Source: Candidatus Latescibacterota bacterium | GTDB taxonomy: Bacteria; Latescibacterota; UBA2968; UBA8231 | Reading direction: 5' to 3' | Assembly (NCBI GenBank): GCA_965203355.1 | Contig: OZ241889.1 | Span: 3,104,001-3,168,000 of the forward strand | DNA length: 64,000 bases | In this document: positions 2,781 to 59,796 of the stretch, one piece after another | Layout: the number at the start of each line of letters is the position of its first letter | Position numbering within the stretch: position 1 is the stretch's first letter | The notes under the pieces: model-generated | Told to the model about the DNA's origin: nothing | The model's input: only the letters and a program-made list of their open reading frames with translations | Database searches by the model: none | Program-made: the position numbers and the translations under genes

Positions 2781-3785
2781 GTGAATCCGTCCAAAACAAC
2801 CAAGGCCTCAACGCACCTTTTGTTGGGCCATACCTGCCGAAAAAAGGGACAGAACGAGCAAGCAGTCACCCACTACCAAACAGCGCGGCGGCTCGCACGC
2901 GCCGAGGGATGCCAAAAGGAGCTTTTTGCGGCTTGCACCCAGCTCGGCCACTACGGCGAGATCGCCGGCGATTTCGACGAATCGCTGCGCTACTTCCAAG
3001 AGGCGTTGGCCGCCTGCTCGCCTAGCCGCTCCCTACGCGATATAGCCGAGGCCGAAGGCAACATAGGCTTTGTCAAACAATGCCAATCCCGCTGGGCCGA
3101 AGCCGCAACATACTACCACCAGGCCATGCAGCACGCCCAACAAGGAGGCGATGCCGCCCTTGCGGCCAAGATGGCCAACAACATGGGCAACCTCTACATG
3201 CAGCAGAACGACCTATCGGAGGCTCAACAGTGGCTCCAGCGCAGCCGCGCCCTCTATGCCGACGACGCACCGGGCAACCTGCTCAACAGCTTGGGGCAAC
3301 TGGCCCGGCGGCGCGGCGACCCACAGCAGGCCCTGCACCACTTTACGGCTGGACTAGCGGCGGCGCGGCAGCAAGGGACGCCCCTCGAAGTGGCCCTGCA
3401 ACTCGGCTCTATCGCTTCGGTCTGCCGCGACTTAGGCCATACAGAGCGCGCCCTGAGCAGCGGCAACGAAGCCTTGAGCATCTACGTGGCACAGGGGCAT
3501 GCCCAAGGTCGCTGTGGCATGGCGGCTCTGCTGGCCGAGCTCTACAGGACCGCTGGCGACCTAGCAATGGCGCAACGGCATGTACAGGCTTCTATGGACC
3601 TGTGCCGACAGCTAGGAAACGCGAGGATGCAGGCTTTCAGCTACGTATCCTTGGGCAATCTGTACGCGCAACAGGACGGCAACAAGCGACGGGCGTTGGC
3701 CGAATGGGTGGCGGCGTTGCGCCTGTTTAAGCAACTCGGTATGGAGACACAGAGCCAAGCTGTCATTAAGGCTATGGCCGCCTAA
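2781..3785 (+). CDS. Tetratricopeptide repeat protein
   Basis: Repeated NIG/NMG/SLG...A..YY.QA TPR helices. AGGAG RBS, GTG start. Confidence 0.85.
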   Translation: MNPSKTTKASTHLLLGHTCRKKGQNEQAVTHYQTARRLARAEGCQKELFAACTQLGHYGEIAGDFDESLRYFQEALAACSPSRSLRDIAEAEGNIGFVKQCQSRWAEAATYYHQAMQHAQQGGDAALAAKMANNMGNLYMQQNDLSEAQQWLQRSRALYADDAPGNLLNSLGQLARRRGDPQQALHHFTAGLAAARQQGTPLEVALQLGSIASVCRDLGHTERALSSGNEALSIYVAQGHAQGRCGMAALLAELYRTAGDLAMAQRHVQASMDLCRQLGNARMQAFSYVSLGNLYAQQDGNKRRALAEWVAALRLFKQLGMETQSQAVIKAMAA

Positions 3786-9824: not shown

Positions 9825-10227
9825 AAATGGGACTCCAGAACATCGGGGTCCCATTTCCGTAACTCGCGGTGCTGTGGGGGCTACTTGAGCAGCAGCATCT
9901 TGACGGCGAGGAACGCTTCACCCGCCTGCAAGCGGTCCGTAGGCGGGCGATCTGACGTTCATAAAGAAAATGGGACCCCAGAACATCGGGGTCCCATTTC
10001 CGTGACTCGCGGGGGCGTGGATGCTACTTGAGCAGCAGCAGCATCTGGATGTCGAGGAAGTCACCGCCCGCCTGCAAGCAGTCCTCTAGGCTGGCGAGTT
10101 GACGTTCATAAAGAAAATGGGACCCCAGAACATCGGGGTCCCATTTCCGTGACTTGCGGTGCCGCGGGTGCTACTTGAGCAGCAGCATCTTCTTGATGTC
10201 GAGGAAATCGCCGCCCGCCTGCAAGCG
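9825..10227 (-). repeat. Tandem ~145-bp units: REP/terminator hairpin plus copy of the last codons of the giant surface protein gene
   Basis: AAATGGGAC(C/T)CC-AGAACATC-GGGGTCCCATTT hairpins at 9825, 9968 and 10115, each adjacent to ctacttgagcagcagc...cccgcctgcaagc. Confidence 0.85.
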
Positions 10228-13200
10228 GTAGAAGTACATTCCCGACGACACGCTCTGGCCGCTATCGTTGGTCGCGTCCCACTCCACCGCGTAACGACCC
10301 GCCGCCTGATGCTCGGCGACCAGCGTCCGCACCGGCTGACCCAACACGTTGTACACGGTCAGCCCCACGGCCGCCGCTTGCGGCAACGCATACTGAATCG
10401 TCGTCTGCGGATTGAACGGGTTCGGATAGTTGGCCGCCAGCGAGAACACGGCCGGGCGCGTCTGCACCGCCACCGGCGCGGGCAATGCCAGCCGGTTGAA
10501 GCCCAACGCCCGGTCATACGTCTGGCTGTCGGTGATTTCGAGCGTCGTGTGCTCGATCTCGGTCGTTGGCCGGAAGACTAAGCGCAGCATCAGCTCGCCG
10601 TCCGAAACGACGTCGCCGTGGGCGGCTACCGTCAACACGCCCGCTTGATCGGCCAGCACCTGCGGCGTAGCGAATGCGCTGCCGCCCAGCGGCTGATCGG
10701 TCCGCGCCTCGACGAAGGTCAACTGGTCGGCGTCATAGGCTACCTGCAAGCCGTAGCCTTTGACCGCTACGAAGTCGGCTAACCGCACATTAACGACGAA
10801 CTCCTCTCCTACGCTCGGCAGGGCGGCTGGCGCGTCCAGATACAGCCGTGCGTCCCCGTTCAGCCCGGCCCGCAACGGCACCGGCTTGCCCGCCGCGGCC
10901 ACGCTGCGACCGAAATGGTCGGCCAACACGAAGAAGTCGTCGAAGTCAATCGTCCCATTCGGCGCCAGGTCAAACGCCGGATCAAACCCGGCGTCGCCCG
11001 CCGTCAAGCCGAAGCGGTCGGCCAACACGAAGAAATCGTCGAACCCAATGCGCGCGTCGGCCCCGAACAGACCCAACAGAGCCTGCCCTTGGCTATCGGC
11101 CACCCGGTTGCGCACGGCTAACGCGGTATGCTCGACCGAACCGGTCTCGTTGTCTAAGTCGAAAGTACGCACCTGATAGGTGTAATGCACACCATGCTGT
11201 GCCGTCTCATCGACGAAGGACGAACGGCCCGCCTCCACCTCGGCGACCACGGAAAACGTTTCTGCTCCCACGGCGCGGCGATAGATGCGGTAGCCATGTA
11301 CGCCCACGACCGGCTCGACCGGCGCCGGGCCTAGTGCGCCGGCCACGACCCCTTGCAGCACCTGATCCGACGGCGACAGCGTCCACGTCAGCGCGATGCG
11401 ACCACCCTGATCGTCCGGCGCATCCAACACCTGCAACGCCGACACGGCCAACGGCGCGATGTCGTCAGTCGCCCGCACAGCCTCGGCCGTCCAAGTGATC
11501 GACGAACTCAGCACACTACTGACGACATTCAACTTCGGAGCCACGCCGCGAGCGTAGGCCAATGCTTCCGGCAGCAACGACGCCAGCACCGGACCCTCAC
11601 CGCCTTGCGCGGCGTCCCGGCTCGCTTGCAGCGTCGCCGCCATCTGCGCGTAAGGCTGCGTCAGGTCGTCCGCTTCGACGAACACAGCTTTGGCCATCGT
11701 GTGCGTGGTGCGACCCCCGCGCTCGGCGGCAATGCCCCAGCGCGTCGAGACGTTGTCCAGCGTCGCCACGATAGCGCGGCCCATCGCCACCCCCGGCACG
11801 GCATCTACTCGCGCCCACGGCACCATCTCATTGCCCAGCACCGGCAACGCACGGAAGATGCGATAGCCGTCCAGCGACTTATGATCGGCCGATAGCTCCC
11901 AAGACAGCATCACGAAACCGCCTTGGTCGCCTTGGCCGTCCGCGCCTTTGTAGTCCTCGGCGACCAGATTGGTCGGCGCCGACAGGGGCGGATCCACCAC
12001 CGCCAGCGGCACCGGCAGCGACTGACGCGCGCCACTGGCATCTACGACCGTGTAGGTCGCTACGGTCTCGCCCATCGTCGTCGGCGTCCCGGAAATCGTC
12101 CGGGTCGCCGCGTCAAACGACAGCCCCGCTGGCAGACCCGACACGCTATACGTCAGCGGCGGGGTGCCCCCGGAGACCGCCGGCAGCGTCAGGTTTGCCG
12201 GCACACCCACGGTGAATTGAATCATGTTGTCGGTATGCGAGTCGGCCGGATTGGCTTTACCGGCTCCGCTGTTGAGACCGAACAACGAACTCAGGTCGCC
12301 CCAGTCCAGCATCGCGTTGACTGTAATTGTGAACATCAGCGAGACGCTTTCGGCGCCAGCCGTCGCCGTGTAGGTGACCTCAACGGCCCCATCGGTCGCC
12401 GCGTCCGGTGTGCCCGAAATCGTCCGGGTGGCCGGGTCAAACGACAGCCCGGCTGGCAAATCCGACACGCTATACGTGATGGTGCCTTCGCCGCCCATCG
12501 CCATCGGCAGCACCAACGGCGTAATCGCCGTGCCCGCCGTATAGGCATGTGCGGCAATCGAAGTGCCCTCGACGAAAGACAAGGGGATCATCATCTCCTT
12601 ATCGTCCATCATGCCGCCGGCCGCTTCCGTCAGCACCAGCGTCGCCGAACCCGCCGTCAAGCCCGGCAGCATCGCGTTGATCACAACCGTCTCGTCGCCT
12701 TCAGCCATACCATCGGAAACCGGATCAATCAACAGGCGCGTCGAACCCATGATCGAACCCGCCGCAATGGTAATCGTCGGATTGAATAGCGCCGAGTAGT
12801 CCGTGTCGCGCGTGGCACTCGAAGCCGCCTCATCAATCGAGACGGTGGCGGTGGCGGCCTCGGCCAACGGCTTGCCATCCAACGCGGCCATGACCATTAC
12901 TTCCGTCAATTCCGCCGACTCGCTGAGCGCGCTCGGCATCACCGACACGACCAAAGACGTGCTTGGCGTCTCGTCGTCGGAAATCCGCAAGTCCACTTGC
13001 CCCCAGCCGCCTGAAGCCGCCGCCCGAACGCCCAAGAACTTATGACCGTCCGCCGAAGCGTTGTCAATCGGCGACAGGAAAAGCGTCGTCGAACCGACCT
13101 TTTCCCCGGCCGCAATGGTGACGGTCCCCACCAATGTCGCGGTGTAATCCACGTCGCGGGTGGCCATCGCGCCGCTGGCCGGTGGCACAATCGTGAAGCG

Positions 13201-15837
13201 GACGCTCTCAGCCGCCGGGGCCGCCTCCGACAAGGTCGCTGTAATTCGGATTTCAGCCGTGTCGCCGTTTTCGCGCACGGCCGATTGCGAAGCCATTACG
13301 CTGGCGACGCCCACAGTGACCGGCGGGGCCTCAGCAACCGTGATGGTGAAGGTCCGTCCCCCGATGTCTCCGTCGTCATCCCGTGCCGTATAGAAGACTT
13401 CCGACATGCCCACCGCTGTCGGCGTTCCCGAAAGCGTCCGCGTCGCCGCGTCAAACGACAGACCTGCCGGGAGGTTAGACGTGACGCCGTACCTCAGCGT
13501 TCCTTGGCCGCCCGTCGCCGCGGGCAACACCTCGCTGAACGCTTGCCCCACCGTCGCTTCAAAGGCTAGCGCCCCCGCACCGAAACTCGGTCGGCCCGTG
13601 TCCGCCGGCGTATCCGAAGAATCATCCATCTTCGCCGCGTCTTTCAGCGTGATCTTCGTGGTGCCGACCTTGATCTTGTCGTCGTCTTGGTTCTTGAGAT
13701 TGTCCGTCAACTGCTTCAGCGTGATCGTCTCGTCGTTGTCGTCGGTCCCGTCGTTGACGGGCGTGATCGTGATCGTCGTCGAGCCAACGACCTCGCCGCG
13801 CGGAATCGTCAGCGAGCTAAGCACCGCCGTGTAGTCCACGTCCCGCGTCGCCGACTTGTCCGGCGTATCATCCACGACCAACGTGATCGTCGCCGCCGCG
13901 TCCAGCACCTTGCCGTCTAACGTGCCGGTCACCGTCACCGTCGTTGCCCCGGCGTCCTCTTTGATTTCACCCGGGCTGACCGACAGCGTGATGTTTTCGC
14001 TCAGCGTCTCATCGTCCGTGATCTTGAACTCCACCGTATCCTTCTGAGACGCTTCGGTGCCGACCTTCGCTATCACCTCGAACGTCCACGGATTATTCAC
14101 ACCGCTGTTGTCCACCGGCGTGACGCGCAGCGTCGCTGTGCCTTTCGTGTCGCCGGTCGGGATCGTCAAGCCTTCAGTGACTTCCACCTCGTAATTCACA
14201 TCGCGCGTCCCCTGACCCGCCACAATCTGAAAGTCCACTGCCTTAGAGCCGGTCAAGGCTTTCGCCAATTCAACCGTCATCGCAACATCAGTCGCCCCGA
14301 CTTCCTCGCGGATCGTCGCTGGACTCAGCGTAAAATTCTTGATCGTCGCCACCGCAACGTCCTCAACCGTGATGGTGCCAGGATTGACCGGGACCGCAAT
14401 GACAAAAGAATCAAGACGCTTGATCGTTCCCGAAGCATTAGCCGTCCCCTCGATCTTCCCATCACCGTTAAGGTCAATACCGATTGGGATAGTTTTGAGG
14501 TTGACGCTGTTGACGAAGGTTCGACGCCTTCCTCTATCGACTTCATAGGGACCTGCTTCCGTTAGCACTTTTCCGTCGGGCACCACATAGGTATCCAACA
14601 AATCGCCATCATTGAAAAAGTCGAGCCCCAAGTCTCGTTCTACTAAGACGGTGCCCGACGTGAGGGTGTCGGAGTTGCTAAGGTCATATCCCGTCGAAGA
14701 AGTAAAAACCCCAAACCCTATGAAATTATTCGAATCATTCCCTTCAGATGATTCGTCTGTTAATCCAATAGTTCCATCGCCATCCAAGTCAATTGCGATG
14801 GCGTGATCGACCATAACTTCCTTAATAGTAGAGGATCCGCTATGTGTATGACCATCTTTTTCGAAGCTACCATCAAGGTTGTAGTCGATCCGGACCTGCT
14901 TACCCGCCTTATTGATCCGTTTCTTGAACTCCACCAGCAGCGTATCACTGCCCCCCAGCGTGATCGTGCCCGCCTTATTTTTCGGATCAACGGTGATCGT
15001 CGTCGTCGCGTCGATCCGCCGCCGTGGAATGGTCAGAGTACCCAACCCTGTAAGCGAGTAATCCACATCGCGCGTCAAGTCGCCGCCAGAAATAACCAAC
15101 TGGGATTTAAGGTCGTGGGCCTTCAACGCGCCGCCCTTCACCGTCGCCGTCACTTCAATCGGAGTCGCATCCGCCTGCTTGCTGAGCTTGGACGGCGAAA
15201 AAGAAAGGTCAATCCCACTCGGCAACTGATCGTCGTCAATGATCTCGACATACAGGCCACCCTGACTCCCATCCCAATATACATTGGGTTCGTTATGTGA
15301 TACGATTAAATTTCCATTACTACCTGCATCAAAACGTATAACGACGGGAATATTAGGGCGCCTTAGAGCTGCATCGCTACTAACTGTCCCCCCCCCAGTA
15401 GTTATACCAATACTATTATTATTTATGATCAGGGGATCAATATCCATCCCCGCTGTGGCCGAGGTCGCTCCGATCCGATCATTGTCTATCGGGGTTATGG
15501 TTATGGTCCCGGTCGTCTTTCGCTCGCCGTTCTTAATCACCATAGTGGGAGCGGGTAAGGATACTCTGAAGAACTTATTGAGATAGGTTGAGGTGCCCCC
15601 CCCGATGAGCTTCGCCTGAATCTGAATATCTGCTCCCGCCTTAGCGTTAGCGTCTTTTAATTCTATCGTAACCGTAATGTCTTGCGCCCCACCGTCCTCG
15701 CGGATGGAATACCGGTCAAAGGAGACGTATAGGCTATCTTGGGCCGTGGCCTCCCCGGCCAACAGCAAACTGGCAATCAGCAAACAAGGCACAAAAGCCA
15801 AGCGCGGCATCGGCACGAACAACTTCGCATGTGTCAT
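10171..15837 (-). CDS. Giant secreted surface protein, paralog A (Calx-beta-like repeats, He_PIG Ig, FN3-like, dockerin-like EF-hands, cohesin-like, FlgD-Ig/T9SS-like CTD)
   Basis: 1888 aa. Signal peptide ending ATA-Q; repeated ATRDVDY; three LPAGLSFD.ATRT.SGTP; twin FDDFFVLAD.FG; VGEEFVVNV...GYGLQVAYD; NYPNPFNP...KKMLLLK. Confidence 0.9.
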   Translation of the reverse strand: MTHAKLFVPMPRLAFVPCLLIASLLLAGEATAQDSLYVSFDRYSIREDGGAQDITVTIELKDANAKAGADIQIQAKLIGGGTSTYLNKFFRVSLPAPTMVIKNGERKTTGTITITPIDNDRIGATSATAGMDIDPLIINNNSIGITTGGGTVSSDAALRRPNIPVVIRFDAGSNGNLIVSHNEPNVYWDGSQGGLYVEIIDDDQLPSGIDLSFSPSKLSKQADATPIEVTATVKGGALKAHDLKSQLVISGGDLTRDVDYSLTGLGTLTIPRRRIDATTTITVDPKNKAGTITLGGSDTLLVEFKKRINKAGKQVRIDYNLDGSFEKDGHTHSGSSTIKEVMVDHAIAIDLDGDGTIGLTDESSEGNDSNNFIGFGVFTSSTGYDLSNSDTLTSGTVLVERDLGLDFFNDGDLLDTYVVPDGKVLTEAGPYEVDRGRRRTFVNSVNLKTIPIGIDLNGDGKIEGTANASGTIKRLDSFVIAVPVNPGTITVEDVAVATIKNFTLSPATIREEVGATDVAMTVELAKALTGSKAVDFQIVAGQGTRDVNYEVEVTEGLTIPTGDTKGTATLRVTPVDNSGVNNPWTFEVIAKVGTEASQKDTVEFKITDDETLSENITLSVSPGEIKEDAGATTVTVTGTLDGKVLDAAATITLVVDDTPDKSATRDVDYTAVLSSLTIPRGEVVGSTTITITPVNDGTDDNDETITLKQLTDNLKNQDDDKIKVGTTKITLKDAAKMDDSSDTPADTGRPSFGAGALAFEATVGQAFSEVLPAATGGQGTLRYGVTSNLPAGLSFDAATRTLSGTPTAVGMSEVFYTARDDDGDIGGRTFTITVAEAPPVTVGVASVMASQSAVRENGDTAEIRITATLSEAAPAAESVRFTIVPPASGAMATRDVDYTATLVGTVTIAAGEKVGSTTLFLSPIDNASADGHKFLGVRAAASGGWGQVDLRISDDETPSTSLVVSVMPSALSESAELTEVMVMAALDGKPLAEAATATVSIDEAASSATRDTDYSALFNPTITIAAGSIMGSTRLLIDPVSDGMAEGDETVVINAMLPGLTAGSATLVLTEAAGGMMDDKEMMIPLSFVEGTSIAAHAYTAGTAITPLVLPMAMGGEGTITYSVSDLPAGLSFDPATRTISGTPDAATDGAVEVTYTATAGAESVSLMFTITVNAMLDWGDLSSLFGLNSGAGKANPADSHTDNMIQFTVGVPANLTLPAVSGGTPPLTYSVSGLPAGLSFDAATRTISGTPTTMGETVATYTVVDASGARQSLPVPLAVVDPPLSAPTNLVAEDYKGADGQGDQGGFVMLSWELSADHKSLDGYRIFRALPVLGNEMVPWARVDAVPGVAMGRAIVATLDNVSTRWGIAAERGGRTTHTMAKAVFVEADDLTQPYAQMAATLQASRDAAQGGEGPVLASLLPEALAYARGVAPKLNVVSSVLSSSITWTAEAVRATDDIAPLAVSALQVLDAPDDQGGRIALTWTLSPSDQVLQGVVAGALGPAPVEPVVGVHGYRIYRRAVGAETFSVVAEVEAGRSSFVDETAQHGVHYTYQVRTFDLDNETGSVEHTALAVRNRVADSQGQALLGLFGADARIGFDDFFVLADRFGLTAGDAGFDPAFDLAPNGTIDFDDFFVLADHFGRSVAAAGKPVPLRAGLNGDARLYLDAPAALPSVGEEFVVNVRLADFVAVKGYGLQVAYDADQLTFVEARTDQPLGGSAFATPQVLADQAGVLTVAAHGDVVSDGELMLRLVFRPTTEIEHTTLEITDSQTYDRALGFNRLALPAPVAVQTRPAVFSLAANYPNPFNPQTTIQYALPQAAAVGLTVYNVLGQPVRTLVAEHQAAGRYAVEWDATNDSGQSVSSGMYFYRLQAGGDFLDIKKMLLLK

Positions 15838-16071
15838 TATTCAACCTCCGTAAGGAAAGCATCGCCCAAGGGCGAAAGGGAAAGGGTAGAAGGAAATGGA
15901 CTTAGCCTTATCACTAAGCCGTTGCGTTCTGGCGTTTTTGCTACCGTTGAGCAAGACGAATCCCTCACGGCGAGAGCTTGGCTACGACGTCGCCGGCCGA
16001 TAACCACGCGGCTATCGAGAAGAGGTTTCGTTTGTGAGGTGGATGGGTGGTCAGTGGCCGGTGGCCAGTGG

Positions 16072-16371
16072 TCGGTGGAGCTTACCGACGCGGCCGGGCA
16101 GAGTAAGGCCGTTTCCCGCTTCCGTAGAGGAAGGGGAGCGAGGCAAATAGGTTGGTGAGTGAAGCTAGGGCTTAATGCCCAAGAAAATCGGGGGGGGGGG
16201 GGGGGGATAAATCATTGTTTTTTAACGACTTATGGCGATTAAGCCTCGGCGTTATCGCAAGCGTAGAACAAGACACCGCCATTGCATCAAGCACCGCTGC
16301 CGGCGATGGCGTTCTTTGTGCTATTGACGTTGTGCCCATGTCCTGTTAATCCGGCTAAGAATGCCGCAAGC
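16072..16371 (-). promoter_or_regulatory. Poly-C leader cassette A (300 bp; G17 at 16190-16206)
   Basis: Colinear homology with 46090-46389. Contains leader ORF ATG 16339 preceded by AGGA. Confidence 0.75.
16172..16339 (-). CDS. Putative leader peptide (55 aa, out-of-frame state)
   Basis: Hand translation: MGTTSIAQRTPSPAAVLDAMAVSCSTLAITPRLNRHKSLKNNDLSPPPPPDFLGH*. Homologous to the ORF at 46041-46355. Confidence 0.5.
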   Translation of the reverse strand: MGTTSIAQRTPSPAAVLDAMAVSCSTLAITPRLNRHKSLKNNDLSPPPPPDFLGH

Positions 16372-16462
16372 GGCGGAGGTTTTATACCCAAACGCGCCGC
16401 TGTGCGCTGTGAATTTCATATCTAATGATTATACAACATCAGTTAAAAGTTTGTCAAATGTA

Positions 16463-16573
16463 GGTCGTGGTTTTTGAAACTTAGCTTTACTCCCGTTGGA
16501 TCGCCCCGGCTCAACCCCAAGCCCGACCTCAACCGTACCGCGGCAATTGGAGATTGCAAAATGTACCACGACC
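16463..16573. mobile_element. MITE-like element, copy 2
   Basis: GGTCGTGGT...TTTTGAAA / TTGCAAAATGTACCACGACC ends and the shared core TTAGCTTTACTCCCGTTG...CCCAAGCCCGACC. Confidence 0.65.
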
Positions 16574-16655
16574 GCCGATTCATTGACAGCGCGGACCAAG
16601 CCTCATAAATAATAAGGCCGTTAAAACCCCAACTTTTGCAAACAAAGGAACAAAC

Positions 16656-17219
16656 ATGACTACAGCGCACGAAGAACTCGTCTTTGCCGAGACCTTCGAC
16701 GGCGTCCTCGATCCCAAGTGGATCTGGCTGCGCGAACATCCCGGCTTTTGGCGCTTGCAAGACGGCCTAGAAATTCGCGTCGAACCGGGCGTGGCCGCTA
16801 CCGTGCAAAACGCACTGTTGCGCCCAGCCCCGGATCGCAGCGCAGAAACCTGGGCCATAGAAGTGACGGTGTACAACCATACCCACCCCATCCAGCAGTA
16901 CGAGCAAGCGGGCATCACTTGGTACCAAAACGGCCAACCTGTCTTCAAGCAGGTCAAGGAACTGATCGACGGCGATCTCTACATCGTTCCCGGCCGCAAG
17001 CCCATGCCCACCCAGAGCGTGCGCCTGCGTCTCATCGTCACCGCCGACTCTTGGGAGGCCCAGTACCGGCCCGCGGGCGAGGACCGATTCCATACCGCTG
17101 ATCGGGGTGAGTTGCCTCCGCCCGGCGACGATCAAGTCAGCATCCAATGCTACAACGGCCCGGAAAACGCCGAGCACTGGATCCGCTTTCGGGACTTTCA
17201 GATTAAACGCCTGCGCTGA
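16656..17219 (+). CDS. DUF1349-like / concanavalin A-like beta-sandwich protein
   Basis: LDPKWIWLRE and QYEQAGI motifs as in GH43 C-terminal/DUF1349 domains. AAGGA RBS. Confidence 0.65.
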   Translation: MTTAHEELVFAETFDGVLDPKWIWLREHPGFWRLQDGLEIRVEPGVAATVQNALLRPAPDRSAETWAIEVTVYNHTHPIQQYEQAGITWYQNGQPVFKQVKELIDGDLYIVPGRKPMPTQSVRLRLIVTADSWEAQYRPAGEDRFHTADRGELPPPGDDQVSIQCYNGPENAEHWIRFRDFQIKRLR

Positions 17220-40357: not shown

Positions 40358-42367
40358 TTAGGCACTCCTCGCTTCGCTCGCTAGGTCATGGTCATATTCA
40401 GCTTTAAGTTCTTCTACTTGCAGTTTGCGCCGATCTAATTCCACAAGCTGATCGTCAATCTTTTGCTGCTCAACCTCATCTAACGAAGCTCCTTTTTCCA
40501 ACTCTTCTAAAAAATTCCGCTTCGCTCTGAAAATGTGCTGCAAACTACCTTCCATTGTATTAAGGGCCTCTAGTCCGAGCCGTTGCAACTCGGTGGCAAT
40601 TTTTTCAAATAATTCGTCAAAAGTTTCTCTCAGAAGCGATTCAAGTTCGTCTTCCAACGCCTTAGCAGCCTTCTTTTTGCCTAGTCCTGTACCACAGATC
40701 CTCTCCCACCAAGAAACTGCAGACCTCACAGCGTTCTCCAGAGTTTCTCGGTTAAGATCGTTTGTCAGCTCCGTTTCTGCATCCTTGCAAATTCTATAAG
40801 GCGGGAGGAGTAGTAAGTGATAGTTTGGTATATATGGTATATATATATCAATGGTCGATCCACTCGTTAGGAATATATCTGATAAATCACTCTCCGACTG
40901 ATTGAGGATGCGTTCGGTTTCTGCCACGATCTTCCTGATAGCTTCCACGAGAATAGAACGACTATCATACAGATGGCTCCCAATACTCATCGCTACTCCT
41001 GCCATATTGTCGATGCTAGGACAACTTTTAAGGTCATCTTCGATCTTTCTCATGATTTCACGAAGCGTTTCATTAATGCTCCTTTGCAGGGGATCTCTTG
41101 CTTCATCAAGAGCCTTCCTGAACTTCTTCATCGTGTTATCAACAACTAAATTTATCGAAACAAGGTTTTCTCTTGTCCGAGCGAAGTCTTTGCTGCGATT
41201 TTCCTGCGATAGGTTAATAGCATTGCGATTAGCCGTCAATATCGCCTTGTCTTGCGCGATGCTTTTATCGGCCTTTTCGAAGACGCTGTCCAAACGTGTT
41301 TGATGCGCCTCAATAATACCATCTCCTTTAGTCGCGATGATTTGTCGTTCAATGACATTGCGAAGTCGCTCAAGCCCATGTCTCTCTGGCTCTAGATAGC
41401 CCTTGCTTGATATTTCCCTCAAATTCCATGTCAAAACCTCAGGCAGGGGGCGACCTGCTTCTTGCATGGCGGAAACAAGCGCACCGAGACCGCTGACGAG
41501 TACGATCTGCTCGTCGTTTCCGAACAGTGCCTTTCCCCTCAAGTCTTCGCTATCTCGAGTTTTCCGAATGTGTCTCCGAATGGCTGCTTCGTCGGGCTGC
41601 GTATCGCACTTGTTCACCGCGATGATGCGCCGGCGAGGATCGATGTGTGTCAAGTACTTGTCAATAAACTTCACGTCATCCTCAGTCAGGCCTGCTTGCC
41701 CGGCAAAAGTGACGTACACCACAGCATCAGCGCGTTCGATCCACTCGCGGGTAATTTTGTCGCGCACCGGGTTCGGATCATTGGTTCCAGGGGTATCGGC
41801 TACTGTCACTTGATGCAGCCACGGACGATCGGCCCACAATTGCACCTGGTTGACATACGCGCTGTATATGCCACCGCTGTTACATACCGCCACAAACTGG
41901 CCGAGCTTATCAAGCCCATCCTCGGAAATGACGCACGGAGGGTTAGTAAGCAGATCGGATTCCCTAAGTCTTTCCGCACGAGCAGTCTCCCGTGCCTCTT
42001 CCAGGTCCTGCGCGGACCGTTCATCTAGCTTGCTAGCTTCCACCACCTCGCGAAATTCGTCAGGCGTGTACAACGTAGCCTCAACTCGCTCCGTTTCATC
42101 TCCTTCCATGAGTGCGATTTTGGCCGTCATAGTCGTAACGTGACTCGGCAACACCTCCTCGGAGAAAAGTAGGGCGTTAAGCAGGGTTGACTTCCCGTTG
42201 TTCATCTGGCCACAGACCGCGAGGATGAAGCGCTCTTCTTGTAGATTGGATTTTGCCTCCTGAAGTGCCTCCACGTCTGCCTTTAGCAATTCATGGTTTT
42301 CAACGACGCGGTCGTACCACTCGCAGAGGGTAGCTTTGTGCTTTTGGTGAATAGCTAGACCGTTCAT
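40358..42367 (-). CDS. Bacterial dynamin-like GTPase 3
   Basis: G1 GQMNNGKST, G2 TMT, G3 DTPG, G4 NKCD, long helical C-terminal half. Confidence 0.88.
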   Translation of the reverse strand: MNGLAIHQKHKATLCEWYDRVVENHELLKADVEALQEAKSNLQEERFILAVCGQMNNGKSTLLNALLFSEEVLPSHVTTMTAKIALMEGDETERVEATLYTPDEFREVVEASKLDERSAQDLEEARETARAERLRESDLLTNPPCVISEDGLDKLGQFVAVCNSGGIYSAYVNQVQLWADRPWLHQVTVADTPGTNDPNPVRDKITREWIERADAVVYVTFAGQAGLTEDDVKFIDKYLTHIDPRRRIIAVNKCDTQPDEAAIRRHIRKTRDSEDLRGKALFGNDEQIVLVSGLGALVSAMQEAGRPLPEVLTWNLREISSKGYLEPERHGLERLRNVIERQIIATKGDGIIEAHQTRLDSVFEKADKSIAQDKAILTANRNAINLSQENRSKDFARTRENLVSINLVVDNTMKKFRKALDEARDPLQRSINETLREIMRKIEDDLKSCPSIDNMAGVAMSIGSHLYDSRSILVEAIRKIVAETERILNQSESDLSDIFLTSGSTIDIYIPYIPNYHLLLLPPYRICKDAETELTNDLNRETLENAVRSAVSWWERICGTGLGKKKAAKALEDELESLLRETFDELFEKIATELQRLGLEALNTMEGSLQHIFRAKRNFLEELEKGASLDEVEQQKIDDQLVELDRRKLQVEELKAEYDHDLASEARSA

Positions 42368-44253
42368 AGTGAATGCTCCTTCATATTATTGATCCGTTTT
42401 TGGAGTTTCGTGAGTTGTTCGGCTTTACTCTCAGCCTTTGATTGATTTCGTTCTGTGGTACTAATGATGGCTTTCTTTAGATCATCTATAATGATCTGAT
42501 CGATTATAATGATCTGATCGATATCTGGATCTGGTACCGAATTAAAACTTGAGACTATATACTCAAACCATCCGTCTCTAGTAGATTTATCCTCCTTGAA
42601 TTCGCCCTGCCAAATCCCTCTTTCAGATTTCCATCTCACATCATGTCGAAAATCTTTTCTCATTTCTTTGGCTACTTCGGAAATATTATTATCGAGAATC
42701 TCTTTCAGTTCTTCAACAACTTTCTCGGGTTTGGATGTAGATTCTATATTGATACCAAAGTACTTTTCTAGGTGAGAAAGTAACACTTCATATATAGAAT
42801 TAATACGAAACCAATTATCATCGTCCATTATATTAATATTATTTAAAGAAACACTAAATCTAACTGTATAATAGCTAGTGTGCGAAAAAATCCCCTTTTC
42901 AATTCGCTCGCCCTTAACAACTATATCCTGGCCAACTCTTTCACAAATCTCTCGGATACAATAGAGCGTATCGCTCTTCGCTTTCTCGATCCTTTTAAGA
43001 GCAGTTTTACGTTTGGTTTCATGATGACTATCACTGGAAGAATCGTTTAGTGCATGTTTCAGTCCCATATCCACCTCAGAAAGCGTCTTTTGCAAGTTTT
43101 CTCGCAGTTGCTGGGTATTCCGCTGAAATTGCCGTTGAAGCATAGAGTGTCGTTCGGCTAGAATTTTGTTCACGATCTCGATAAGTTCCTCGCGAGATAC
43201 CAGCTCAAAACCTGATGAGAGAGGCGCATCGTACACATTGCCGGTGATATCGAGCTGATAACTCTTTGTAGTTAGTTTAGCCGAGATATTTTCTCGAAAT
43301 GAATCGCGCCTCTTGTACGCTTCTCGCATGCGATCCATCATTCTGTCCAGCGCGTCGAGCGGTTCCGCGTCTTCGGATTCATTCAACTGCAACGCAGAAA
43401 CAAGCACGACATCGCGGAATAGATCGCCGTGCTTCTCCTTGCAGAAACACTTCAACTCCCTACGTTGCGGTGGTGGCAGATCCTCAGCCTTGTTGAGCAA
43501 GAGGAATGTGGGTGGGTTGGTCGAATCTTGTGACAGCTTATTCAACTCGTCCAACAGCGTACCTGATGGATTGCCCTTGTGAGCATCCGCGATTACAAAC
43601 AACACATCTGATTCTCTGACAGCTTGTTTGGTTACTTCAGTATCAATCTCATTTGGCGGCGGAGCATTAAACCCGGGTGTATCGACAAGTCGAATGTGAT
43701 CGAGAACCGGGGAGTTTATCGAGATGCGGAAGGTATGCGACTCGTTGTCGCCCTCTTTCTGATGGCTGGCCAATGCGCGGTACTTCGTTTTACCCAAAGA
43801 AACCCATTTTCTATCCGCTGATTCTTGCTCAATGCGTTCTTGGTCGCCATGGACAAAGTACGTTACCGATGCGGTCGTCGGCTCATCGCCTACCGGGCAC
43901 ATATCCATTCTCAATAGTGCATTGATGAATGTCGATTTACCTGCACTGAAGTCACCGACCACCGATACGGTCAAAAGACCGAAACCATCCTGAAGATTGC
44001 GCTCCTCGGCAAGGTGTTCAATCAAGCTCTTTTCCAAGGAAACTAACTTATCCGCTAGTTCGCCGGTCAAAAGATCGAGTTCGGCATCGGCAAATTGGTC
44101 GCGAACAGATCGCAAGTCGAGGAGACATTTAATCGTAGCGTTGTGACCGATTGGCCGGGTGTCTTCCTGTGGAGCCGATGAGGGTACATCTGTTTTTCGC
44201 GACGACATAGCCTTCTTCTTCGGAGTAGCCTTCTTCTTACGCTTACCGCTCAT
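42364..44253 (-). CDS. Bacterial dynamin-like GTPase 2
   Basis: G1 GDFSAGKST, G2 PTT, G3 DTPG, G4 NKAE; Lys-rich N-terminus; ATGA overlaps at both ends. Confidence 0.88.
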   Translation of the reverse strand: MSGKRKKKATPKKKAMSSRKTDVPSSAPQEDTRPIGHNATIKCLLDLRSVRDQFADAELDLLTGELADKLVSLEKSLIEHLAEERNLQDGFGLLTVSVVGDFSAGKSTFINALLRMDMCPVGDEPTTASVTYFVHGDQERIEQESADRKWVSLGKTKYRALASHQKEGDNESHTFRISINSPVLDHIRLVDTPGFNAPPPNEIDTEVTKQAVRESDVLFVIADAHKGNPSGTLLDELNKLSQDSTNPPTFLLLNKAEDLPPPQRRELKCFCKEKHGDLFRDVVLVSALQLNESEDAEPLDALDRMMDRMREAYKRRDSFRENISAKLTTKSYQLDITGNVYDAPLSSGFELVSREELIEIVNKILAERHSMLQRQFQRNTQQLRENLQKTLSEVDMGLKHALNDSSSDSHHETKRKTALKRIEKAKSDTLYCIREICERVGQDIVVKGERIEKGIFSHTSYYTVRFSVSLNNINIMDDDNWFRINSIYEVLLSHLEKYFGINIESTSKPEKVVEELKEILDNNISEVAKEMRKDFRHDVRWKSERGIWQGEFKEDKSTRDGWFEYIVSSFNSVPDPDIDQIIIIDQIIIDDLKKAIISTTERNQSKAESKAEQLTKLQKRINNMKEHSL

Positions 44254-46028
44254 GGCCGACCAACCTTTTTAAGCCGCTCAATATCGTCTTGAATACGCGA
44301 CACCTTGGCGTTGCGCTCCTTGATATCGTTTCGTCGATCAGACTCAATCTGAGAAAGCACACTCTGCACTTCTTCAGACTCGCGCTTTAAGGGTTGAAAT
44401 ATTTCAGACTCGAAGTATGCCTCAATATCTCGGGCCGCTTGCTCCGAAACCTCCATGCAAATACGGTCCATTGGCTCGTCGATGCGCTCCTTTTTCAACC
44501 GCTCTCCAACCCAGACAGCGACAATGTTGATTATATTGACATCGTGCATAGTGGCAAGCATACTTTTTCCGACTTTCTTCAGCCCTTCGGCGGCTGCGCG
44601 TCTCGCCATTTTGGTGGATGCTTTGGCGGCCGCATGGCGCAATCCCGCACCGACCGTCGACTCTGCGGCAGTAGCAGCTACACCAGCACCAGGTAAGATC
44701 GCGGCAACCAGTGCGGCAGTAGTAATGGTTGCCGCCACGCTCATAATCTTGTTGGTGTCTTTCAACAAGCGTTTGATCTCCGCGTCAATCTCGCCAACAT
44801 GGTTATCCCGTTCTTGTCCCAGTCTCTTAAAATGCTCGCTAACCTTTGTTGCGAGTGCCGAGATGAATGCGCTACTGACCTGTTCTATGGTGATCTTGGC
44901 TGGTTGTTGATGATGGTCTAGTTGATCTTCATAGGTGAACTGTTCTATGGCGAGATCGTCTGACGCAGCGGCAAACCGACCCTTATAATCGGTGCATATT
45001 GCACTCACATCCCGGCGGAGATCATCGCGCGACTTATCGAAACGTTGCCGTTGCTGGTGTAGCTCTTGATCCAATCTTTCGCGTCGATCATTTGCCTCTT
45101 TCTGGCGCGACAAAAAATCTCCTTCCGACTCCAGTAAGCCACCCCGCATTTGCTCAAGCGTCGCGATTGCACCTGGCACCAAACGAACGCTGGCGCGATC
45201 TTGCCGTTCGGCCATAAGGGACGCCTTCCGCGCCTCGAACACCTCGTGGATAGCGGTGCGTAAAGTACTGACATCGCGCACTGCCGCCTCCGGACCAGCA
45301 CTTACGACCACAATGCGCCCCTCGGCTTCTGATTTGGCGCAGCCAATGGTCTGCGCCAGCGTGTCGGCAGTCTTCTCGGCGACCACCGCCCGCTCAGAAT
45401 CTGGCAATTGGTCGGCAAATGTGAGCGCGATGAGAAAGCGATGTTGTAGATGGCGAACGCCGGGAGAAGTAAGAAAATCGGTGACGGTACTCGTTAGCCC
45501 TCCCTTGCGGATATCCACGCAGATCATGGCTGCATCTACGAAGGGTAGCTTTCCCAAAGTGACCTCCGTGTGCTCTTGGAAAGCAGGCGTCGATAGTCCC
45601 GGCGTGTCGAGGAATACGAATCCTGCTGGAAACCCGGGCCGGGAGGGGAGGCGTACAAGTGGGCGGCCCGGCGTATGCCCGCGGGCGAGATCATCAAAAT
45701 CAGGACGACTGATTGCCGTCTGCTCATCCTCGTCGTCCACGCGAAAATACTCCGGCTCTTGGAGAGAAGGCGTCGAGATGACCTGTCCGGCCCGCGCTGT
45801 GCAAGGCTCGAGTTGCACTGGCATGAGGTCCTCCACGCCTACCAACTCGTTGATTAGCGTACTCTTGCCGCTACTGAAGTCCCCCAGAAAACCTATCTGC
45901 ACCGCATCATCACTCGTAAGGCTCTGGATATCGTCGGACAATCGGTCCAACTCCCACTGCGAGGCTACCTCGCGCAACACTTCCAACACTGTTGAATCAC
46001 CTTGTTCGGTCGTCACATTCCGCTCCAT
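44250..46028 (-). CDS. Bacterial dynamin-like GTPase 1
   Basis: G1 GDFSSGKST, G2 PCT, G3 DTPG, degenerate G4 TFAD; hydrophobic paddle-like segment; AGGAGG RBS. Confidence 0.88.
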   Translation of the reverse strand: MERNVTTEQGDSTVLEVLREVASQWELDRLSDDIQSLTSDDAVQIGFLGDFSSGKSTLINELVGVEDLMPVQLEPCTARAGQVISTPSLQEPEYFRVDDEDEQTAISRPDFDDLARGHTPGRPLVRLPSRPGFPAGFVFLDTPGLSTPAFQEHTEVTLGKLPFVDAAMICVDIRKGGLTSTVTDFLTSPGVRHLQHRFLIALTFADQLPDSERAVVAEKTADTLAQTIGCAKSEAEGRIVVVSAGPEAAVRDVSTLRTAIHEVFEARKASLMAERQDRASVRLVPGAIATLEQMRGGLLESEGDFLSRQKEANDRRERLDQELHQQRQRFDKSRDDLRRDVSAICTDYKGRFAAASDDLAIEQFTYEDQLDHHQQPAKITIEQVSSAFISALATKVSEHFKRLGQERDNHVGEIDAEIKRLLKDTNKIMSVAATITTAALVAAILPGAGVAATAAESTVGAGLRHAAAKASTKMARRAAAEGLKKVGKSMLATMHDVNIINIVAVWVGERLKKERIDEPMDRICMEVSEQAARDIEAYFESEIFQPLKRESEEVQSVLSQIESDRRNDIKERNAKVSRIQDDIERLKKVGRP

Positions 46029-46040
46029 AGTACGCGCCTC

Positions 46041-46355
46041 CTAAAAAGATAGACTTAGGGATTTGATGGTTTTGGCCGGTGCCCCGAGATCGGTGGGACT
46101 TGCCAACGCGGCCGGGCAGAGCAATACCTCTTCCCGCTTCTGTTGAGGAAGGGGATCGAGGGGAATAGGCTGATAAATGAATCTAGAGAATGCCCGAGAA
46201 AATCGGGGGGGGGGGGGTAACTCATTGTTTTTTAACGACTTACGGCAAAAAATAAAGCTCGGTATTGGCGTTATTTTAAGCGTTGAATAAGGTACAGCCA
46301 TCGCATCAAGTACCGCTCTGCAATGGTATTCTTTTACTATCGACGCTGTATCCAT
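46041..46355 (-). CDS. Putative leader peptide (104 aa, in-frame state)
   Basis: Contains KSLKNNELPPPPRFS. Its TAG overlaps the AGGAGG RBS of dynamin 1. Homologous to the split ORF at 15837-16339. Confidence 0.55.
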   Translation of the reverse strand: MDTASIVKEYHCRAVLDAMAVPYSTLKITPIPSFIFCRKSLKNNELPPPPRFSRAFSRFIYQPIPLDPLPQQKREEVLLCPAALASPTDLGAPAKTIKSLSLSF

Positions 46356-46389
46356 GTCCTGCTTAATCCGCCTAAGAGTGCCCGCAAGC
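46090..46389 (-). promoter_or_regulatory. Poly-C leader cassette B (300 bp; G13 at 46205-46217)
   Basis: Colinear homology with 16072-16371. Confidence 0.75.
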
Positions 46390-46522
46390 TAAGCTATCGG
46401 TTTAAGTTCAGCAAGAAACTATTACGCTATTTTTCTGTGTCAATACAAAACTGGATTAGCTTCGTGATAACCTACAAAAACGCCGTCATACGCCTATCTT
46501 GTCAAGAGCAGCACACTGCCCC

Positions 46523-59544: not shown

Positions 59545-59796
59545 CCAGAACATTGAGGTCCCATTTCCATAACTCGCCAACATCGTGCCGTGTATGCTAC
59601 TTGAGCAGCAGCATCTTGACGGCGAGGAAATCACCGCCCGCTTGCAAGCGGTCCTCTAGGCTGTCGATCTGACGTTCATAAGAAAATGGGACCCCAGAAA
59701 ACTAAGGTCCCATTTTCGTAACTTGCGGTGCCGCGTATGCTACTTGAGCAGCAGCATCTTCTTGATGTCGAGGAAGTCGCCGCCCGCCTGCAAGCG
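59545..59796 (-). repeat. REP/terminator hairpin plus orphan C-terminal tip downstream of paralog B
   Basis: Orphan RLQAGGDFLAVKMLLLK* at 59597-59650 and an AAAATGGGACC...GGTCCCATTTT hairpin at about 59684-59716. Confidence 0.8.

Follow-up and report, generated by a model that had tools for sequence, protein, structure and literature searches.

Short, putatively translated leaders carrying a slippage-prone run of C residues precede many surface-protein genes in the uncultured phylum Latescibacterota, and their sequences indicate that they most likely constitute a reusable, random on/off switch. The window (the whole 64,000-nt stretch of Latescibacterota DNA analyzed) contains two such cassettes, which are members of a large family in Latescibacterota genomes. 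In these cassettes, a promoter-like site is followed by the start codon of a leader ORF, a variable N-terminal stretch, a box of the form [R/H]KSLKNNxL, and the C tract, which is read as poly-proline in the leader ORF and is 8–24 residues long, with a mode of 14 (73 distinct copies). Long C runs were almost absent elsewhere in the cassette genomes, yet were kept at every cassette copy. For example, the 14 cassette copies of genome G133 held all 14 of its C runs of at least 11 residues, whereas eight of nine such runs in G140 and five of seven in G141 lay inside a cassette, and most of the 36 in G145 were located behind the box. The host genomes belong to environmental bacteria and are 4.5–7 Mb in size. 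In terms of cargo, the genes behind the cassettes mostly encoded exported surface proteins and glycan enzymes (43 of 74 ORFs were scanned), including LRR, fn3, cadherin-like, PEGA, and GSDH proteins, glycosyltransferases (GT2), and phosphonate or nucleotidyl enzymes, which by analogy is typical contingency-locus cargo.

An earlier note on this DNA had described two homologous leaders of approximately 300 bp with unrelated genes downstream, and positions 16072–16371 and 46090–46389 did align. The 21-mer TAAGTCGTTAAAAAACAATGA occurred exactly twice in the window (0 expected; 100 shuffles), and C runs of at least 11 residues were found in only two places, the tracts of copies A and B. A search of the whole window against Rfam at the gathering score gave no matches. 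Copy A, on the − strand, is preceded by a promoter-like site (TTGACA-18-TATAAT, 16428–16457), which matches the consensus at 12 of 12 positions and lies approximately 90 nt upstream of the leader ATG at 16339. The leader opens with MGTTSIAQ...HKSLKNNDLSPPPPPDFLGH and passes through the conserved box at 16208–16234 (CAT AAG TCG TTA AAA AAC AAT GAT TTA, encoding HKSLKNNDL) into a tract of 17 C at 16190–16206. As assembled, the leader ORF (16172–16339, 55 codons) follows an OFF frame to a TAA at 16174–16172, and a second frame ends at a TAG at 16167–16165. A tract of 15 or 18 C would lead into the third frame, which runs without a stop for 116 codons (15837–16187); its TAA (15839–15837) overlaps the ATG (15837–15835) of the next gene as TAATG. 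The frames and stops named for copy A in the earlier note were thus all correct, and the three post-tract lengths are 5, 7, and 116 codons; a composition-matched shuffle would be open in that single long frame with a probability of 0.022. The gene that would be gated (10171–15837, − strand) encodes a 1888-aa secreted protein with He_PIG Ig domains and a FlgD_ig/type IX secretion C-terminal sorting domain. A paralogue at 59740–63999 shares 91% identity with it, and the genes behind G133 cassettes match its N-terminus at 53% identity over 130 aa. On the best reading of the sequence, copy A appears to be OFF as assembled.

Copy B, also on the − strand, has a weaker promoter-like site (TTGACA-16-TAGTTT, 46416–46443), which was read by eye and not called by the consensus scan. 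Its box, RKSLKNNEL (46218–46244), adjoins a tract of 13 C (46205–46217), and its 104-codon leader ORF (46355–46041) is indeed the homologous long frame, as had been proposed. The leader stop, a TAG, overlaps an AGGAGG sequence and lies 12 nt before the ATG at 46028 of an operon of three dynamin-family GTPase genes (40358–46028, − strand) with low G+C content (0.45–0.54). The best reading is that copy B is probably ON as assembled. The statement that indels between the two copies are multiples of three held upstream of the tract (36 versus 38 codons), but downstream it applied only to the first 3-nt indel, after which the homology decays.

Orthologues of the dynamin-like operon, with 73–79% identity, were found in four relatives. 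The cassette was absent at the orthologous operons in three of the four readable loci of these relatives, and the remaining one carried a different subfamily, suggesting that the cassette was gained independently at this operon. This comparison, together with the unrelated downstream genes across the relatives, upholds the earlier proposal of a reusable element and supports the interpretation that the cassette is a portable 5′ element that can be placed before unrelated genes.

The tract lengths, which were taken from assembled contigs, in which homopolymer lengths can be wrong, ranged from 12 to 21 in 13 G133 leaders and from 11 to 22 in G145. Between copies and between genomes, tract length varied while the flanks barely changed: near-identical paralogues carried all three length classes, and the lengths differed in three of three orthologous pairs between two species-level genomes (G124 and G126) with flanks that were mostly 94–95% identical. 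The tract is also placed so that a change in its length alters the reading frame. Two of the post-tract frames usually stop within 2–9 codons, whereas the third is open for 60–130 codons to the start of the next gene, or is fused to the gene. The longest post-tract frame extended for at least 60 codons in 20 of 22 sequence clusters, which showed this three-frame design, whereas 2000 shuffles gave 7.6 such clusters on average and never more than 15 of 22. One frame leads without a stop from the tract to the gene's ATG in copy A and in 12 G133 leaders, although in L067 it reads past the start. The homologous long frame is open for 112–148 codons in 10 of the 12 G133 leaders with a recognized gene start; in the other two, indels have moved the openness to a different frame, which is still open to the start. 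Among eight G133 copies, the other two frames contained five polymorphic and four fixed stop sites, and the long frame contained none. For the window's own family alone, the shuffle P values were modest (0.012–0.022), and the chance that no stop-creating change had occurred was approximately 0.13 within G133 and approximately 0.016 when the copy A branch was added.

In the fused members (e.g., L004, L103, L109, L128, and L140), the tract lies inside the gene's own ORF and no start codon follows it. Among them are a GT2 glycosyltransferase and lipoproteins with the pattern MLDNLHKSLKNNKL-Pn-RK...LLASAGC; 9 of 17 were in frame, and the other 8 were out of frame and otherwise intact. Where the tract has decayed by interruption (L004 and L069), the ORF is fused in frame.

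The codons of the nine-residue box varied mainly at synonymous third positions across the 73 distinct copies: all four TCN codons (TCG, TCC, TCA, and TCT) were used for its serine, in 70 of the copies, and leucine, asparagine, and lysine were written as TTA/TTG, AAT/AAC, and AAG/AAA, respectively. This pattern implies that the box is constrained at the peptide level. The codon-level analysis that had been suggested for the whole leader gave a signal only there. Substitutions were not enriched at third positions in the N-terminal part of the leader (19/26/18) or in the long frame (25/27/23; 49/49/44 with copy A). No conserved protein is encoded in either part, and the argument that the leader is translated depends on the avoidance of stops and on the box.

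We propose, with somewhat better than even confidence, that the cassette mediates slipped-strand phase variation that is read out through the frame of the leader. The gain or loss of C residues by slipped-strand mispairing would set the frame in which ribosomes exit the tract. In two of the three frames they would terminate within 2–9 codons, whereas the third would carry them to the gene start, with a stop that overlaps the ATG or lies within a few tens of nucleotides of it; in fused members, it would run straight into the gene's own signal peptide. The downstream gene would be well expressed only in the third frame, probably by termination–reinitiation coupling or, alternatively, because translation shields the approximately 330-nt C-rich leader from premature termination at terminator-like hairpins or by Rho. 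The C runs may, however, make the OFF state leaky, since +1 ribosomal slippage occurs at CCC-C according to excerpts of two reports (PMC7577736 and PMC8643618). From these features we infer switching within populations, translation of the leader, and the mode of the frame read-out. In the scanned region of copy A, six terminator-like hairpins were detected, compared with 1.8 ± 1.3 in shuffles, and three of them, with pyrimidine-rich tails, lie in the long frame (15976–15962, 15920–15899, and 15875–15862, − strand). The G133 leader L056 has a hairpin at the place matching that of copy A, and post-tract hairpins occurred in two of the five leaders scanned, with pyrimidine-rich tails and not U-runs; none was found in the post-tract leaders of L001, L102, or L123. 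Masking of the ribosome-binding site was no stronger than in shuffles. Promoter-like sites related to that of copy A (TTGACA-16-TATTGT) were present in L001 and L102, and the consensus scan called none in L056 or L123.

The tract could instead act at the DNA or RNA level regardless of frame, with the open frame being incidental. It might space a promoter from a factor-binding site, as the repeat does in Bordetella fim, be recognized in the 5′ UTR by a small RNA or an RNase according to its length, or serve as a poly(C) Rho-loading site. Nucleotide-level elements do exist in these leaders, since the frame in which a second conserved box, GGCATTCGTCTGTACG, is read differs between L001 and L073. 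There is also a partial dyad (TAAGTC-N13-GACTTA) in the 19-nt box, the box is inverted and adjoins a poly-G after an ATG on the opposite strand at five G145 loci, the post-tract leader is C-rich (C, 0.31–0.34 versus G, 0.22–0.23), and length-dependent 5′-UTR repeats are known, as excerpts of two papers describe (PMC12721329 and PMC8295292). Nevertheless, we consider an action independent of frame unlikely. The promoter-like sites are upstream of the leader ORF, in copy A approximately 220 nt before the tract, with a similar placement in L001 and L102, so that the tract is predicted to be transcribed and not to lie in a promoter spacer of the fim/porA/opc type. Moreover, the synonymous-site pattern of the box, the combination of two near-immediate stops with one long frame, and the fused genes lacking another start codon would all be left unexplained.

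The peptide-level constraint on a box directly upstream of a proline run would also suit a physiological sensor, in which the leader peptide stalls or frameshifts depending on EF-P or tRNA-Pro status and gates termination in the leader. The short-frame ORFs end soon after the run, much like those of classic attenuation leaders, EF-P and Rho genes, host factors that also favour the phase-variation reading, were present in all five cassette genomes checked, and the excerpted literature establishes uORF-controlled Rho termination (PMC12360218) and CCC-C as a +1 slippery site (PMC7577736). However, a codon-run sensor would need nothing nearly as long or as variable as tracts of 13–24 C, which fall into all three length classes even in near-identical paralogues, the fused genes that are truly out of frame do not fit, and no alternative hairpin pairs were identified; a sensor that replaces a heritable switch is therefore quite improbable, although sensing is compatible with frame-dependent phase variation and could coexist with it. 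It is similarly hard to credit that the tract is a neutral, mutation-prone relic without regulatory effect in a repeated leader that spreads with a gene family by duplication and gene conversion. The fraction of ON copies (28 of 76), about one third, is also the value expected from indifference to frame, codon-level constraint is confined to the box, and most G133 cassettes stand before paralogous genes, which may mean no more than that each leader was duplicated along with its gene. A relic would not account for the retention of C runs at every copy, the in-frame fusion of ORFs with interrupted tracts, the placement before unrelated genes with a probable independent gain at the dynamin operon, or the avoidance of stops in one frame. 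More speculatively, and at rather low probability, the box and the 4–8 prolines may form a functional module for ribosome stalling or frameshift tuning, and the 27-nt box might in addition tag the tract for transfer by recombination. If so, Latescibacterota would own a plug-in switch that joins heritable ON/OFF states with physiological input (EF-P or tRNA-Pro state) and that can be installed before any gene, even a putative defence operon of the dynamin-like type.

To our knowledge, almost all cases of repeat-driven phase variation come from host-adapted pathogens. The presence of 14–36 long C tracts per genome, nearly all in one cassette, in an uncultured environmental phylum therefore points to random switching of the cell surface as a major strategy outside pathogens, which pressure from phages or hosts might plausibly drive. 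We know of only one demonstration of a separate-leader mechanism, that of pil1, which the cassette would extend to a homopolymer, to a long translated spacer that stops at the start codon of the gene, and to a portable module before unrelated genes. The conservation of the box peptide beside a poly-proline run is a testable puzzle. There is also a warning for annotation: cassette genes in metagenome-assembled genomes will be miscalled as pseudogenes or given wrong starts.

Among known systems, Neisseria pilC (poly-G) and opa (CTCTT) vary in phase at the level of translation through repeats in the stretch that encodes the signal peptide. The fused relatives are similar: they form multigene families of exported proteins in which the tract separates the start codon from the signal peptide. 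This type was rejected for the window copies, in which a stop separates the leader from the gene: these are separate leader ORFs that end before or overlap the gene start and leave the coding sequence untouched. The cassette also resembles leaders with runs of proline codons, such as mgtP/mgtL, and the short translated leader tnaC, which decides whether transcription continues into the gene (excerpts of PMC12360218); those leaders are metabolite-responsive and genetically fixed, whereas the deciding variable here appears to be a heritable tract length. As excerpts describe it, the phasome of Campylobacter, Helicobacter, and Neisseria comprises dozens of poly-G/C contingency loci (PMC6321876, PMC8355987, and PMC5084427), likewise concentrated at surface-protein and glycan-modification genes, but without a shared flanking cassette, whereas nearly every long tract here lies behind the same 27-nt box in homologous leaders. 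In Haemophilus influenzae hmw1A and Helicobacter pylori RepG–tlpB, a variable repeat likewise lies in a long leader downstream of the promoter of an adhesin or surface gene; the excerpted accounts attribute graded output to RNA pairing or processing (PMC12721329 and PMC8295292), whereas the frame architecture of the cassette points to a three-phase translational read-out. The closest precedent by analogy is the leader-peptide switch of Streptococcus gallolyticus pil1/pil3 (Danne et al. 2014, PMC3894217). According to the excerpts of that report, a hypermutable GCAGA repeat in a separate upstream leader ORF combines phase variation with attenuation, and the ribosome translating the long peptide reaches a downstream hairpin, increasing expression of a surface-structure operon. 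A repeat in a leader ORF had thus already been shown to gate a downstream gene, and the earlier note's remark that the cassette is not recognizable as a described element needs some qualification. As in pil1, both window copies have the repeat in a separate leader ORF, and the frame would decide how far the ribosome travels. Compared with that excerpted account, the cassette, which is known from sequence alone and in a different, uncultured phylum, differs in having a homopolymer of 8–24 C, a conserved peptide box before the tract, a long frame of 60–130 codons to the gene's start codon, which it sometimes overlaps and in some members is fused to, a weakly indicated terminator, and 14–36 loci per genome before unrelated genes.

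On the minus strand of the window, the segment at positions 16072–16371 (copy A) can be aligned with that at 46090–46389 (copy B), and the 21-mer TAAGTCGTTAAAAAACAATGA occurs exactly twice, against none expected from 100 shuffles. C runs of at least 11 nucleotides occur at only two sites in the window, 16190–16206 (17 C) and 46205–46217 (13 C). With 17 C, the leader ORF of copy A runs from the ATG at 16339 to a TAA at 16174–16172. The second frame stops at a TAG at 16167–16165, and the third continues for 116 codons up to a TAA overlapping the ATG of the downstream gene at 15837. About 90 nt upstream of the leader ATG, a scan of the same strand located a promoter-like site with perfect TTGACA-18-TATAAT. 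The gene encodes a protein of 1888 amino acids with He_PIG and FlgD_ig domains and a type IX secretion sorting domain; a second paralogue, 91% identical, lies at 59740–63999 and continues past the window end. The ORF of copy B has 104 codons, and its TAG stop lies inside AGGAGG; three dynamin-family GTPase genes follow, the first starting 12 nt downstream of this stop. The alignment and the shared 21-mer thus bear out the claim of the earlier note that homologous repeats precede unrelated genes, and translation confirmed each of the frames and stops it had described for copy A, including the TAATG overlap with the surface-protein gene, as well as its placement of the copy B leader in the homologous long frame. 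Rfam returned no matches in the window, and for the copy B leader ORF the protein search returned seven candidates, none of them scored, and Pfam no families. The low-G+C dynamin-like operon behind copy B occupies one end of a defence-like island (23439–46028), which also contains a type I restriction-modification system (ResIII helicase, N6 methylase, and S subunit), an IrrE/HTH pair, a ThiF-family protein, and an AAA_21/AbiEii-like ATPase.

In both copies, the C tract follows a 27-nt box encoding the peptide [R/H]KSLKNNxL. When 167 genomes of the phylum were searched with the box pattern TAAGTYGTTAAAAAACAAT, allowing up to two mismatches, matches were found in 61 genomes and matches to a reversed control were rare; this count overstates the family because many of the two-mismatch matches are chance occurrences or other elements, such as DnaA-box-like words in AT-rich regions and, in genome G124, a MITE-like repeat. 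Tract-bearing cassettes were confirmed by visual inspection in 12 genomes, as well as in the window and on one metagenome contig, and several genomes contained many true copies. The search in relatives proposed in the earlier note revealed numerous copies in the Latescibacterota. A stricter pattern retrieved a single record from the genome collection, an uncultured Latescibacteria chromosome, and missed most relatives because it demanded GA after the box; a pattern scan of metagenomes retrieved a single locus (L115). In G133, the closest relative by leader sequence, all 14 box matches are followed by 12–21 C. Counted from the tracts, C runs of at least 11 lay inside a cassette in 14 of 14 cases in G133, 8 of 9 in G140, 5 of 7 in G141, and 1 of 2 in G001, and most of the 36 such runs in G145 stood behind a variant of the box. 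Copy A and 13 of the 14 G133 copies have a leader of about 550 nt in common over its whole length, and the proteins encoded behind these 13 copies are homologous at their N-termini to the window protein, with 53% identity over 130 amino acids. In the G133 lineage, the leader moves together with a multigene family.

Several matches had other arrangements. At L072 in G140, the box is duplicated in tandem, the first followed by 21 C and the second, 12 nt later, by a decayed tract, and at two loci in G001 (L104 and L105) a box without a C tract lies 24 nt ahead of the Shine–Dalgarno (SD) sequence and ATG of a signal-peptide gene. The MITE-like repeat of G124 (L077, L079, L080, and L081), about 110 nt long with inverted-repeat ends GGCGTTGTTGCA and TGCAACAACGCC, includes a box-like word and was the source of several two-mismatch matches. 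Genome G086 had 13 matches to a reversed control pattern (C10, then T and an A-rich word) and none to the corresponding forward pattern, which may represent another tract-bearing element. At five loci in G145 (L126, L131, L137, L138, and L139), one strand carries 13–19 nt of poly-G after an ATG (M-K/R-x-Gn...); the 5′ UTR consists of the box in reverse complement, which also supplies that ATG. Such an inverted arrangement may represent either a rearranged cassette or a switch of a second design.

Nearly all downstream ORFs of the family started with signal or lipoprotein peptides, and their bodies were unrelated; the scan covered 43 of 74 ORFs, with near-duplicate paralogues omitted. They included LRR, fn3, cadherin-like, PEGA, WD40/PD40, M23, dockerin/FlgD_ig, GSDH+fn3, HlyD, and TPR proteins, as well as enzymes (two GT2 glycosyltransferases, an arylsulfotransferase, a PEP mutase/cytidylyltransferase, and a nucleotidyltransferase). 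Orthologues of the dynamin-like operon were found in four relatives at 73–79% identity. The cassette was absent from three readable loci (G133, G140, and G136 copy 2), whereas G136 copy 1 carried a cassette of another leader subfamily with 14 C; one further contig was too short to read. At the window locus, the cassette joins native sequence about 30 nt ahead of the ATG. The unrelated downstream genes and the dynamin-like loci with and without a cassette uphold the proposal of a reusable element, and the cassette, by these comparisons, is evidently portable.

Tract lengths ranged from 8 to 24, with a mode of 14, and all three phase classes occurred among near-identical paralogues. At three of three orthologous loci of two related genomes, the tracts differed (12/14, 11/16, and 13/8) within flanks that were mostly 94–95% identical. 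These comparisons point indirectly to a hypermutable tract. In four sequencing runs containing the stretch, available as assembled contigs, none bridged the tract; the contigs break there, and one of 6952 nt starts inside it. Over window positions 15400–17000 in runs X1–X4, the summed contig depth over the leader exceeded that over the unique flank 10- to 50-fold, and numerous short contigs with variant sequences mapped to the leader. This excess speaks only for a multi-copy or shared leader and fits one that is highly repeated in the sampled communities.

The frames were analyzed in 76 distinct copies forming 22 sequence clusters. Usually, two frames stop 2–9 codons after the tract (OFF) and one remains open to the downstream gene start (the long frame, ON). 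The longest post-tract frame had at least 60 codons in 20 of the 22 cluster representatives, whereas in 2000 shuffles the corresponding number averaged 7.6 and did not exceed 15; for the copy A/G133 family alone, the shuffle P was a modest 0.012–0.022. The expectation that one frame reaches the downstream start held for copy A and 12 G133 leaders, with the blemish that in one of these, L067, the frame overruns it. In L058 and L063, internal indels have moved the open frame to another register, where it is still open to the gene start. Across eight G133 copies, the other two frames contained five polymorphic and four fixed stop sites and the long frame none; the chance of zero stop-creating changes, about 0.13 within G133 and about 0.016 with the copy A branch, is again modest evidence. 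In fused members, the leader ORF is continuous with the gene and no start codon follows the tract, examples being a GT2 enzyme and lipoproteins of the form MLDNLHKSLKNNKL-Pn-RK...LLASAGC with GGAG and an ATG ahead. Nine of 17 fused genes were in frame, and eight were out of frame though otherwise intact. Over the 76 copies, the ON fraction (28/76) equalled the random-phase expectation, which is compatible with contingency loci and also with indifference to frame; assembled homopolymer lengths may be off by one, which affects only the ON/OFF calls. The frame design, the open frame, the fusions, and the synonymous variation of the box are four lines of sequence evidence indicating that reading frames matter.

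In the nine codons before the tract, variation among 73 copies was mainly synonymous: Ser was encoded by TCG (38), TCC (20), TCA (10), or TCT (2), with three Leu replacements; Leu by TTA (35) or TTG (30), with seven Phe and one Ile; Asn by AAT (31) or AAC (27), with ten Ser, four Lys, and one Arg; and Lys by AAG (66) or AAA (4), with two Asn and one Arg. The eighth codon varied freely. Such a pattern argues for translation of [R/H]KSLKNNxL and for selection on it at the peptide level. The idea that the whole leader is a conserved protein was rejected, since the third-position excess that the codon-constraint analysis suggested in the earlier note would have revealed was absent outside the box: substitutions by codon position were 19/26/18 in the N-terminal part and 25/27/23 in the long frame (49/49/44 with copy A). 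Because of this, the ORF outside the box looks like a translated spacer rather than a gene product. Programmed −1 frameshifting at A_AAA_AAC was also rejected: in 30 of 73 copies, a TTG codon ahead of the site breaks the heptamer, and most copies have an immediate stop in the −1 frame. The box contains a partial dyad (TAAGTC-N13-GACTTA); for a role as an RNA hairpin or dyad site, compensatory and disruptive changes were both present. The ATG-to-box spacing is nearly constant in the long-leader types (32–38 codons). The N-terminal leader ORF is overlapped by a long GC-rich hairpin at window positions 16300–16340 and in L001 at 3079–3113 (16 pairs), which may explain this constant distance better than a peptide function would. 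A second conserved box, GGCATTCGTCTGTACG, occurs about 60–100 nt before the gene start in seven leaders (L001, L007, L065, L073, L076, L102, and L150) and more weakly in the window at 15950–15970; its reading frame differs among members, so it acts at the nucleotide level. These leaders also have a CGGAT...ATCCG hairpin, the stem sequence of which differs between members.

The stop of the long frame lies at or close to the gene start: copy A has TAATG, G133, L076, and L086 have ATGA or GTGA overlaps, and in other members the stop falls from a few to a few tens of nucleotides before or after the start. Because some predicted starts share the frame of the upstream ORF and are uncertain, we relied on those for which both the signal peptide and the SD sequence are clear. 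From the position of these stops, ribosomes on the long frame would terminate at or near the gene start and could couple to it by termination–reinitiation. From the short-frame stops to the gene, about 330 nt of C-rich RNA follow (C 0.31–0.34, G 0.22–0.23). In copy A, this region has three terminator-like hairpins, and one G133 leader has a hairpin at the matching site; none was found in three scanned leaders of other subfamilies. Rho and EF-P are encoded in all five cassette genomes considered. For the OFF state, polarity or attenuation across the C-rich leader is thus plausible. Masking of the ribosome-binding site by the pyrimidine-rich leader was rejected, as the unpaired probability of the SD sequence equalled that of shuffled controls in eight of eight leaders. 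The OFF state may be leaky, because CCC-C in long C runs is described as a slippery site for +1 frameshifting (PMC7577736, PMC8643618) and transcriptional slippage on such runs is possible.

Overall, the interpretation as a reusable switch was largely supported in its architecture and family, and its working as a switch is hypothetical. Our search for literature on phase variation in Latescibacteria or on such a cassette returned nothing relevant. Repeats in signal-peptide coding regions constitute a related kind of switch. Other relatives in kind are poly-G/C phasomes, 5′ UTR repeats acting via RNA (PMC12721329), and Rho termination controlled by upstream ORFs (PMC12360218). The closest experimentally tested system is the pil1 switch of S. 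gallolyticus, in which GCAGA repeats shift a leader peptide from one frame to another; when the longer version is translated, its ribosomes keep a terminator from forming (PMC3894217). Alongside these systems, the cassette, with its putative switch function, is a variant of known repeat-driven switching that is new in form.
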